Positions 13,062-34,924 of a stretch of 64,000 nucleotides of DNA are shown one piece after another. Made by a program: the position numbers and the translations under genes. Under the pieces are notes generated by a model, which did no database searches, was not told where the DNA came from, and was given only the letters and a program-made list of their open reading frames with translations. The first letter of the stretch is position 1. Each line of letters starts with the position of its first letter. This DNA is from Polaribacter sp. (GTDB lineage: Bacteria > Bacteroidota > Bacteroidia > Flavobacteriales > Flavobacteriaceae): the NCBI GenBank assembly GCA_028343155.1, contig JAOLXX010000008.1, positions 3,342 through 67,341 of the forward strand, written 5' to 3'.

Positions 13062-13316
13062 ATGGCAAAAAACACATCAATTTTATTAGGAGATTACTTT
13101 AATGAGTTTATAAGTGAACAAATCACAACTGGAAGGTTTTCATCAGCAAGTGAAGTTGTTAGGTCGGCTTTGAGATTATTTGAACAAGAGGAAAACAAGA
13201 AAATAGAATTAATTAAAGAACTAAAAAAAGGAGAAAACTCAGGATTTATCGAAAACTTTAATAAGAAGGAATTTATAACTTCAATGCATAATAAGTATTC
13301 TAGTGGCGAATTATAA
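13062..13316 (+). CDS. parD: ParD-family (RHH) antitoxin
   Basis: MAKNTSILLG..F..FI..QI..GRFSSASEVVRSALRL; start moved from the ORF-track TTG to ATG 13062. Confidence 0.9.
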   Translation: MAKNTSILLGDYFNEFISEQITTGRFSSASEVVRSALRLFEQEENKKIELIKELKKGENSGFIENFNKKEFITSMHNKYSSGEL

Positions 13317-13602
13317 AATAAGTATTGAAGCAGGGAAAGACCTTGAAAAAATATGGGCAAATACATTTGAAACTTGGTCAATTGAACAAGCTGATAGATA
13401 TATAAACCAGATTATTGAGGAAATTGAATATATAGCTGTCAAACCTGAAAGTGGAAAAGACTTTAGCTATATAAGAAAAGGGTATTTAAGGACTAAAGTC
13501 AAGCTTCATTTTATATTTTATAAAGTAGACAAAAAGAATAAAATAGTCGAAATTATCCGTATTCTTCATCAAAGAATGGATATTGAAAATAGACTAAAAT
13601 AG
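13303..13602 (+). CDS. parE: ParE/RelE-family toxin
   Basis: A.KDLEKIW..T...WS.EQADRY, HFIFY, IIRILHQRMD; overlaps the antitoxin stop. Confidence 0.9.
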   Translation: MANYKISIEAGKDLEKIWANTFETWSIEQADRYINQIIEEIEYIAVKPESGKDFSYIRKGYLRTKVKLHFIFYKVDKKNKIVEIIRILHQRMDIENRLK

Positions 13603-13608
13603 GCAATA

Positions 13609-13802
13609 GCCAACAAAGATGTGTATATTTAATGCGGGGTTTGGTTTTTAATTCAAAGTTTTGTGTGTTTTTACTAAGTCCGTCAAATCATTTTGATTTG
13701 ACTTTTGATTAAACAAGATAAAGGCAAACAAAATGCTTTGCCTCGTGCTTAACTGAAAGTCTTCTGACTTTCTATTTCCGCACTAAACATACACGCAACG
13801 TT
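13609..13802 (+). repeat. attC-like long folded element
   Basis: AAC...GTT termini; arms GTGTATATTTAATGCGG (13621-13637) and CCGCACTAAACATACAC (13778-13794); three internal hairpins. Confidence 0.65.
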
Positions 13803-14088
13803 ATTTATAAGTTGAAAAAAACCATCTCCATACAAAACAGAGTGCCCAAAAAGGCACACATTGTTTTTCTTCTTCATTAAATAGTAATTCAACAAAAAAC
13901 ATTAAATTCAGCAAAAAACAGGAAAATTAAAAAAGATTGTTTAGTTAATAAAACTGAAATTAGATTTCCTAGTTCATTAAGTTTTAAACCAAAAAAAAAT
14001 AAAAATGTTACACAACCTCTAAAAATTTTATGCAGGTAAATTAAACCAGATGTTAAATTTACAGTCTAAACTGCTAAACCTCAAACCT

Positions 14089-32954: not shown

Positions 32955-32988
32955 AAAACTTCCTGGTGCTTCACTAGGGAGTTTTTTT
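32955..32988 (+). terminator. Intrinsic terminator after sdhB
   Basis: AAAACTTCCTGGTG-ctt-CACTAGGGAGTTTT followed by a T run. Confidence 0.75.
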
Positions 32989-33042
32989 ATGCCCTAATGC
33001 CATTATTTTTAAAAAAACATTCTAATTTTTGATCCTTTTTTT

Positions 33043-33096
33043 CCATTCACCGACAGAAAACGACCATTCACCGACAGAAAACGGTCATTCGTCGAA
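33043..33096 (+). repeat. 21-bp tandem direct repeat (about 2.5 copies), possible LytTR-type binding site
   Basis: CCATTCACCGACAGAAAACGA / CCATTCACCGACAGAAAACGG / TCATTCGTCGAA. Confidence 0.7.
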
Positions 33097-33243
33097 TAAA
33101 TTCCTATTGTTAGAAAAGAAGTAAGACCTTTACATTGAATTTTATTGAAAATATTAAAAATAGATAAAATGAAGCCTGTTGCTATAAGCGATATATCAAC
33201 AATAGCGTTTATACAAGTGTTGTAAACAATTTAAACCAAAAAT

Positions 33244-33878
33244 ATGAGAATAAAGATTACACTACTTTTTTGCCTTTTGACAATTTCATTAACTTATGGT
33301 CAATATGATTGGACTAAAGGGAAACTTGTACTGAAAAACGGAGACACTTTAAAAGGACAAATTAAACTTCCGATGATTTCCAAAAATTTAGTAGCCTTTA
33401 ATGGTAAAGAAAAAGTGAAATATAGAAAAAATAGAAAATCAAAAAAGATTAAATATGATGAGACCAAAGTGGAAAAAGTAATTTTTAGAAACTCTGATAT
33501 CGAAATTGCTTTCTTTGAATACATACAAACATCTAAAAAGAAGAAAGGACTTTTTAAAGTTATTAGCTCTGGAAAACAACATTATATGCAAGAAGTGTAA
33601 GTATGACATCTTCAACACCGATGTATATGGGTGGTCCAAATGGAGGAACTTGGAATCATTGGAATTATTCTTTTAGTGATTTTAATGAATTTTATGTTTT
33701 AAAAGAAGACGAAGCAATCGCAAGTCCATTAATTACTGCCAGATTATCTCGTTCTTTTAAAAAAAGAGCAATGGAATATTTTTCTGATTGTCCAAATTTA
33801 GTTTCTAAACTTGACAAAAGAATGTATGTGAAAGACGATATCAAGGACGTTATTGATGAATATAATGAATGTAAATAA
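33244..33878 (+). pseudogene. Secreted hypothetical protein, frameshifted (cassette-like gene)
   Basis: Signal peptide; G.LVLKNGDTLKG; 1-nt shift near 33576 joins SGK to TLYARSVSMTSS; C-terminal YFSDCPNL. Confidence 0.75.
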
Positions 33879-33882
33879 AAAC

Positions 33883-34013
33883 TGTTTACAACACCGTATA
33901 AAAAAAATTGCTAGTTTTACTCAAACCAAAGTTAGTTGCTTGTTTGCTAGCTTCTGATTTTCCTTCGGAAAATCCTCGCACACAAACCCGCAACTTTTCT
34001 TATACATAAACGT
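33883..34013 (+). repeat. attC-like folded element
   Basis: TGTTTACAAC, then arms GTATAAAAAAAATTGC (33896-33911) and GCAACTTTTCTTATAC (33990-34005); internal GATTTTCC-ttc-GGAAAATC. Confidence 0.7.
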
Positions 34014-34024
34014 ATGAATGAACT

Positions 34025-34612
34025 ATGAATAAAAAACTCATTTCCCTATTAGTACTTTACTTTTTTCAATTTCTTGCGACCTCTTGTGACCCATGCGATT
34101 GTGAACCTGGAAAAACTTTTGAGAGAACATATAATGGATTAGAATTAAAAGCTTGGGATACATCTGGTTTTCAAAACGAAGAGGTATCTGATACTGTCAA
34201 TAAAAATTCATTTGGTTTAACAGTATCAGTTGAGTTTGATTTAAATCAAATAGCATATTTGAAATCAAGATTAGATTTTAGTTCTTTTGGATTTGCTTCA
34301 GCTTACGCTTGTAGTTGTCCACCTGATGAATATATAAACGTTGACCCTATTGAATCTATAGAAATTCGAGTAACTGACACCCAATCTCAAGAAATAATGG
34401 ATGTAACAACTAATTTTTCTACTTATGATTACAATGGAGAACAAATAACAATTAGCGATTTTTTTGAAAACAGAGCTGATTGGCATCATGGATTCCAATT
34501 GGATATGACAGAATACGATAACATTCCTACTACTTCAATTTTTGAGGTTAAAATAATTTTAGAATCTGGAACTGAATTGATTGAACAGACACAGGAAATA
34601 AATTTTGAATAA
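34025..34612 (+). CDS. Hypothetical lipoprotein (DUF5034-like), cassette-like gene
   Basis: Lipobox LATSC followed by DPCDC; AYACSC; acidic composition. Confidence 0.7.
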   Translation: MNKKLISLLVLYFFQFLATSCDPCDCEPGKTFERTYNGLELKAWDTSGFQNEEVSDTVNKNSFGLTVSVEFDLNQIAYLKSRLDFSSFGFASAYACSCPPDEYINVDPIESIEIRVTDTQSQEIMDVTTNFSTYDYNGEQITISDFFENRADWHHGFQLDMTEYDNIPTTSIFEVKIILESGTELIEQTQEINFE

Positions 34613-34618
34613 TAAATA

Positions 34619-34660
34619 CTTTGCACACCACCGTATAAAATTAATTGCTGGTTTTAGCCA
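34619..34660 (+). repeat. Truncated attC-like element (left arm only)
   Basis: CACCGTATAAAATTAATTGCTGGTTTTA vs CACCGTATAAAAAAAATTGCTAGTTTTA at 33892. Confidence 0.7.
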
Positions 34661-34663
34661 GTC

Positions 34664-34924
34664 GAAAAAAATAAAATTATTGAAACTCCTTGGGTAGCCC
34701 CATATCTTGAAATTGGAATAGGAACTTCAATCAGAAAGGTTGAAACATTGACAGTATTTGATAATATTGACAAAAGCGGAATTATTTATCATATTCCCTT
34801 TTCAATTGGACTGGAATTGGGCAAAAATAATAACGTTGATTTAGGATTTACTTATTATTTTCAACCATCCGTTGAACAGTTTGTTGGAGCATTTGCAGTT
34901 GGAATAACATTTCCGCTGAATTAA
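34664..34924 (+). pseudogene. 5'-truncated outer-membrane beta-barrel-like gene fragment
   Basis: Open frame with no ATG: PWVAPYLEIGIG...VDLGFTYYFQP..GAFAVGITFPLN*, alternating beta-strand pattern. Confidence 0.55.

Follow-up and report, generated by a model that had tools for sequence, protein, structure and literature searches.

How do genes come to lie as cassettes in a chromosomal interval that has no recombinase of its own? The question is raised by a Polaribacter sp. window (the whole stretch of 64,000 nucleotides analysed, from contig JAOLXX010000008.1 of assembly GCA_028343155.1), in which sdhB and rnhA are the flanks of a cassette-like interval (Table 1). Neither a transposase nor a recombinase was found within this interval, and the sequencing runs in which the locus stretch occurs come for the most part from marine, sediment, or ice metagenomes. 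An earlier note, made from the letters alone, had read the interval as an array of attC cassettes whose recombinase lies elsewhere. The cassette organization stands, but the array is not intact (gene 1 is split, element 1 ends in GTA, and the ends of gene 2 are unmatched), the sites are not classical attC sites, having no extrahelical bases, and the enzyme associated with them is not IntI. A dedicated tyrosine recombinase does exist intact in relatives, whereas the incomplete assembly of this genome holds a truncated relic.

Table 1. Positions of the cassette-related features in the window
Feature	Position	Strand	Remarks
Leader module, ~200 bp	32983..33182	+	Common to solo attachment sites at unlinked loci
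attI-type site	33183..33221	+	Ends in GTT 33219-33221
Cassette 1 (core site, gene 1, attC-like site)	33219..34013	+	Start shared with L125, X9 and X10
Gene 1	33244..33878	+	Predicted secreted; ORFs 33244-33600 and 33603-33878
attC-like site 1	33883..34020	+	Inverse core, arms, inner hairpin, right end
Gene 2	34025..34612	+	195 aa; lipoprotein-like N terminus (by eye); decayed cassette
attC-like site 2, left half	34618..34662	+	Left arm 34627-34662; right half absent
Gene 3, 3' remnant	34667..34924	+	Outer-membrane beta-barrel-like
Second, unlinked attC-like element, longer subtype	13600..13815	+	Behind parD-parE pair (13062-13602)

A decayed cassette row between sdhB and rnhA

The 12-bp inverted repeat around gene 1 (33217-33228 and 33883-33894) is perfect, as the earlier note had it, and extends to 16 bp at 94%. 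Element 1 runs from the AAC at 33890 to the GT at 34012-34013, with spacers of 3 nt after the AAC and 6 nt before the right end, and an inner hairpin is located near 33958-33972. Its 16-bp arms (33896-33911 and 33990-34005) pair at 14 of 16 positions, and both mismatches are G.T on the bottom strand; when folded, this strand gives a long stem whose inner loop is C-GAA-G (z -3.1), reproducing the earlier description, and the long stem is not formed by the top strand. The right end reads GTA (34012-34014), not GTT. The near-identical second left arm is also present, but its inverse core is ACC rather than AAC, and the remainder of site 2 is missing through a deletion that reaches into gene 3. 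The deletion junction is seen in contigs of runs X1, X2, and X3, one of which may be the source sample; contig joints with undetermined letters between their sides were excluded from the read evidence. The element at 13.6 kb forms the same kind of bottom-strand stem as element 1 and gives no match to covariance model R1 (described below), in line with the claim that it has the same design and a different sequence; the sequence after it duplicates the 3' part of the gene upstream (13062-13815).

Compared with an intact homolog of 210 aa, gene 1 appears to have lost 1 bp near 33577 and is thereby split; the deletion may be a mutation or an assembly error, and the sole read-run contig at the frameshift begins 4 nt before the deletion. 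No Pfam family matched gene 1, and its homologs come from source records titled Flavobacteriaceae or Flavobacteriales; in four of five of them no site was detected. The ends of gene 2 are no longer complementary, and its homologs occur in 3 of 300 family genomes, none adjoining a detected site. Gene 3, correctly called headless, is reduced to the last ~80 codons of a protein that is 185-186 aa when intact. It is intact in L121, which has the same downstream DNA as the window and a different cassette ahead; none of its homologs adjoins a detected site. The exported status of the cargo proteins is based on N termini judged by eye, together with a weak beta-barrel Pfam match of a gene 3 homolog. 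The array at the sdhB locus is thus decayed, with gene 1 frameshifted, site 2 halved, and gene 3 headless. Lacking a recombinase, it comprises one whole attC-like site and one half site, and the CALIN criterion is at least two attC sites with no integrase nearby.

The attI-type site and its recombinase

The sequence before gene 1, which the earlier note overlooked, is an attI-type site. In genome G628, an intact recombinase gene (370 aa) is followed, directly after its stop codon, by DNA identical to the first 35 bases of this site. In G593, G018, and G669, a slightly diverged attI follows the recombinase stop, sites of the attC-like family come next, and the recombinase is 5' of and co-directional with them. 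Within the genome of the window (G000), the attI-type sequence is found at five places, namely, the window and contigs C5, C13, C23, and C45, and G018 also holds copies of the module without a recombinase. Across the class, TATA-N3-6-GTT was recognized by eye behind 23 of 28 recombinases, a count that leaves out one locus without an ORF and the unpublished G134 locus. An attI pattern search of 300 family genomes returned 2 two-mismatch matches, neither with cassette context; the congeneric attI copies were reached only via the recombinase relic described below.

The solo attI sites and cassettes of G000 map to C13:24280-27300, C23:7441-8700, C5:50970-51400, C45:102942-103016, and C2:45165-47055. 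A second leader type is present at C13 and C23, and at C5 the two types are arranged in tandem. G018:C46 (L171) has three tandem copies of the attI box, and in G669 (L166) the recombinase is duplicated in at least its 3' part, with a second attI following the duplicate. The leader module of the window has a sharp 5' edge near 32983. It contains two 21-bp tandem repeats (33043-33084), one copy of which is absent in L116, and we take their spacing to resemble that of LytTR-type regulator boxes. The module may serve as a promoter; a sigma-70 and terminator scan stayed at chance level, the sigma-70 model being ill-suited to Bacteroidota.

A tyrosine recombinase is located directly 5' of, and co-directional with, the arrays at six loci in five genomes (G017, G002 [two], G012, G009, and G011), and matches at an E value of <1e-60 occur in 94 of 251 class-wide genomes, a tally that takes in one unpublished genome as well as the present one, which is without a match. 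This adjacency points to the recombinase as the enzyme of the sites. The protein has the catalytic residues and a SAM-like domain, preceded by an extra N-terminal domain of ~70 aa that belongs to no named family; a HARP-like assignment of this domain found no support. Its TIGR02249 scores are 174 to 208 bits against a cut-off of 265, below in all six proteins, and the I2 region is missing, since residues 268-292 of the query span positions 180-247 of VchIntIA, making it ~43 residues shorter. The I2 helix is credited with single-strand recombination by integron integrases (PMC7790495; here and below, citations refer to the accessible part of each source). XerA-like and IntI-like scores are equal, and an alignment-based model matches both XerA and VchIntIA; a single-sequence fold was uninformative. 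Many distant homologs are 450 to 790 aa long and several are matched in two or more stretches, so that their N-terminal parts may be longer or repeated.

The intact recombinases of this assembly are only XerC/XerD-like proteins and unrelated integrases. Contig C2, however, carries a relic of the cognate recombinase, of which the first ~65 codons remain; its DNA is 89.6% identical over 356 nt to the 5' region of the G628 gene. Joined to these codons is a truncated methylase gene with an attC-like site at its end. The full-length profile missed this relic and an N-terminal profile gave an E value of 0.095; a direct search settled it. The cognate recombinase has likely been lost from this genome, the assembly of which is 81% complete, so that an intact copy may be unassembled. 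Elsewhere, a truncated member of the recombinase family (48.5% identity) is found directly ahead of tet(X3) (L128:5052-7230; NZ_CP041297.1), with an attI-like GTT between them and, by eye, a left-arm-like sequence behind the gene; R1 found no match at this locus. The matches to the recombinase family include 25 Acinetobacter-type plasmid records.

The site family and exchange at the GTT

A region search showed that congeneric genomes contain element 1 many times over, with up to ~25 sites per 20 kb and the same cassettes recurring at different positions. A first geometric scan with a strict stem recovered none of the true sites; covariance model R1, built from 27 sites, gave matches in 39 of 40 congeneric genomes (completeness of at least 90%), bearing out the scan that the earlier note had proposed, and 5 strong matches in this genome. 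The anatomy of 210 sites from seven genomes reads AAC, 3 nt, a 16-bp stem, a variable center, the other arm, 6 nt, and GTT; AAC is found in 206, GTT in 209, and the 6-nt spacer in 198 of these, counts that are in part imposed by the detector. Among the 27 aligned sites, 10 of the 16 stem pairs show compensatory change, two positions are G.T on the bottom strand, and the 16 pairs are contiguous, with no extrahelical bases or bulges. Of 160 unique sites, 156 fold better as the bottom strand. A loop of the form GNA or GNNA occurs on the bottom strand in 107 of 124 inner hairpins and on the top strand in none; strand and loop counts overstate the number of events because related sites are not independent. 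Loops of the GNA/GNNA type are very stable in DNA.

The core and inverse-core arrangement claimed for gene 1 extends to the family. When the 7 bases after GTT were compared with those before AAC, at least 6 of 7 matched in 92 of 114 unique intervals (69 perfectly), whereas shuffled end pairs gave a mean of 4.75 such intervals and a maximum of 12 in 1000 shuffles; 45 of the 114 intervals come from a single genome. The match fails in the other 22, many of which are long and may conceal missed sites. Among the 1468 ORFs of the genome, a perfect match of GTT plus 7 bases between the two ends was found once, in an ORF that is likewise a cassette gene, on C13; being split, gene 1 escapes this test. 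At 19 class-wide recombinase loci, R1 found sites in 8 and a relaxed detector in 11, and several of the others are short or without sites. In other strains, such sites carry, among other cargo, a restriction-modification pair and an ABC-3C system. The families found in 10 scanned cargo proteins, all from outside the large arrays, were restriction-modification, ABC-3C, PHP, and beta-barrel; neither these proteins nor the window genes matched an immunity family.

The arrays of G017 and G011 (L042-L045 and L052-L053) contain many repeated short cassettes without an ORF of 70 to 90 codons, some of them up to 23 times, and a few sites are oppositely oriented. Family sites are also carried by marine flavobacterial phages, L173 (NC_028924.1, 29100-41000) and Winogradskyella phage Peternella_1. 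In Polaribacter phage P12002L, the annotated genes, DNA methylases included, run opposite to the sites.

The earlier note expected the flanking genes to vary between strains, and they do so at the GTT. Two metagenomic loci follow the window through sdhCAB and then continue with other genes, L116 (95.6% over 3859 bp) up to 33221 and L122 (96.4% over 2675 bp) up to 33223; four contigs of run X13 depart at 33222. Seven copies of the module have six different sequences after the GTT and a common sharp 5' edge near 32983, and at the gcvP locus G000 and L120 differ from the GTT onward. Cassette 1 itself recurs in L125 at 86% identity, beginning exactly at G33219; there it is intact and has a different site behind it. 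A contig of run X9 matches cassette 1 at 100%, also from 33219, and one of run X10 matches 33219-33420 at 100% with an attC-like right arm directly before it, a junction equally compatible with a circle and with another array. Junctions at window position 34012 and in L121, L125, and C23 read GTA or GTC, keeping the GT and not the last T. Among 10 congeneric genomes the sdhB-rnhA interval is short in 7 and has other inserts in 3 (G009, G012, and G020), with an attC-like site in none; variation between species is therefore not cassette evidence, and only the strain-level comparison is.

Known systems and competing explanations

The system resembles integrons, sedentary arrays, CALINs, and the "inverted integrase" group included, in a tyrosine recombinase adjoining an attI that ends in GTT, in one-gene cassettes with core and inverse core that are exchanged at the GTT, in bottom-strand-biased hairpins with an unpaired spacer and a variable terminal structure, and in large arrays with repeated cassettes and defence and toxin-antitoxin cargo. 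It differs in the recombinase, which scores below the TIGR02249 cut-off, lacks I2, and carries the additional ~70-aa N-terminal domain, and in stems without extrahelical bases, the spacers here being 3 to 4 and 5 to 7 nt. Extrahelical bases define the L arm of attC, and some attC sites tolerate deleting them (PMC5027507). Unlike in classical integrons in general, the recombinase is co-directional with the array, although co-directional integrases are known in some integrons (PMC4889954). The system is not a classical integron; it is integron-like and fails two defining features, the IntI I2 domain and the extrahelical bases.

The closest published layout is that of rAID-1 of Bacteroidales, in which a 5' XerD-like recombinase precedes short low-GC co-directional genes, the intergenic sequences are repetitive and "reminiscent of integrons," and a separate motif is found right behind the recombinase (10.1101/471110; PMC12247911). 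This layout, with a 5' recombinase, at least two co-directional low-GC genes, and repetitive intergenic sequences, is found in the relatives and not at the recombinase-less locus of the window. Membership in rAID-1 is set at a recombinase >44% identical to BF9343_RS08045 (10.1101/471110; PMC12247911), and we lean toward the recombinases being homologous at that threshold; compared by published description, the two systems are probably the same or sisters. They differ in that the present hosts are marine Flavobacteriaceae, whereas rAID-1 belongs to Bacteroidales with orphan interbacterial immunity cargo, and the accessible rAID-1 descriptions are silent on hairpin anatomy, on the point of crossover, and on solo attachment sites. 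In Riemerella anatipestifer, also of the Flavobacteriales, aph(3')-IVb is taken up independently of homology with a 27-bp leader and a 140-bp attC-like 3' region (PMC13148043); by description, a leader, a gene, and a ~140-bp attC-like stem-loop integrate there as a unit, but no recombinase or attI is identified in Riemerella in the accessible part of that account. The CALIN of phage P12002L carries family sites, with four R1 matches of 46 to 81 bits. Two P12002L sites assayed in PMC9892861 score 13.7 and 14.9 bits with R1, which is not significant; the assay was accordingly dropped as a validation of the site family, and its IntI1 result neither proves nor disproves family activity. We found no published account of such site anatomy or of solo attachment sites, though subscription journals and supplements may hold one.

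We consider it likely that the interval represents a solo attI-type site followed by a short decayed cassette row, and that cassettes enter at the GTT by site-specific recombination between this site and the folded bottom strand of the cassette hairpin, likely through the 370- to 395-aa Bacteroidota tyrosine recombinase. The recombinase would excise a cassette as a circle, in which core and inverse core rebuild a fully paired hairpin, and the circle, presented as a single-stranded substrate, would be reinserted at attI in first position with the crossover within the GTT; the GTA and GTC junctions would fit cleavage at either G/TT or GT/T, or the loss of a few bases at that point. Expression would be driven by the leader, and solo sites would be served in trans. 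At the sdhB locus, gene 3 and its downstream DNA, the same in L121, would be the resident end of the array, ahead of which cassette 2 and then cassette 1 were added; a later deletion would have fused site 2 to the middle of gene 3, and the recombinase was seemingly lost, with array decay afterwards.

Several observations stand against this explanation: the ends of gene 2 are unmatched, the homologs of genes 2 and 3 and four of five gene 1 homologs are without a detected site, the enzyme lacks the I2 region that serves integron integrases on single-strand sites, and the stems are free of bulges. The same cassette system could instead be run by a Xer- or Cre-like recombinase on double-stranded sites, the palindromes being binding arms, cruciforms, or transcript hairpins, and the absence of I2 and of extrahelical bases, the equal XerA-like and IntI-like scores, and a P12002L site with the family spacing (by eye) that did not recombine with IntI1 (PMC9892861; one site) all speak for this; it is nevertheless unlikely, as the AAC and GTT boxes are 110 to 220 nt apart around a variable center and folding alone unites them, and only the bottom, nontranscribed strand has the wobble pairs and the stable loops. 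Classical integron cassettes, whether a CALIN or off-target insertions, supplied by IntI in trans or in another host, would account for the GTT/AAC logic and the CALIN-like layout, and the non-GTT junctions recall off-target insertion (10.1101/2022.09.11.507474). But the attI upstream belongs to a non-IntI recombinase, such an enzyme is found at every array head examined, and the off-target IntI consensus is GWT against GTA or GTC here, which makes this origin highly improbable. We give very little credence, too, to the elements being dispersed repeats, ends of insertion sequences or MITEs, or structured RNAs, with the genes having come by other routes, an origin that the earlier note had named as fatal to its reading. 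The 240-bp leader-plus-attI module does resemble a small mobile repeat with its sharp 5' edge, and the sites are AT-rich; however, an Rfam search of the elements gave no match, the interval is free of transposases, the breakpoints fall at the GTT, and the complementarity joins two ends of a gene, not of one repeat, so that for the attC-like sites the end-match test refutes a repeat origin.

An integron-like system of rAID-1 layout has thus already been published, and the locus described here is a decayed outpost that is probably rAID-related. Relative to the published descriptions that we found, the solo attachment sites would be a new element. The system likely recombines folded single-stranded DNA with an enzyme that lacks a segment of the classical integrase, the single-strand step being the part that we infer. 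The chances seem even that Bacteroidota possess a second, class-wide kind of integron, in which an I2-less tyrosine recombinase works on single-stranded hairpins free of bulges, perhaps by means of the additional domain at its N terminus, and the attachment site can leave the recombinase gene and spread as a 240-bp module, so that one chromosome holds several independent landing pads, each served in trans. In addition, the family enzyme before tet(X3) on Acinetobacter plasmids may mark a capture route of Flavobacteriales resistance genes.

Complete integrons are nearly absent from Bacteroidetes in IntegronFinder 2 (PMC9024848), as against sites in 39 of 40 congeneric genomes and the recombinase in 94 of 251 class-wide genomes. 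The locus contributes a natural mapping of the crossover and evidence for dispersed solo attachment sites. Single-strand recombination has been attributed to the I2 helix, which the present recombinase lacks; if this enzyme does recombine hairpins, single-strand recombination would have been solved in a second way, integron finders would need extending, and the growth of rAID-1 and the unexplained gene uptake of Riemerella would gain a testable mechanism.
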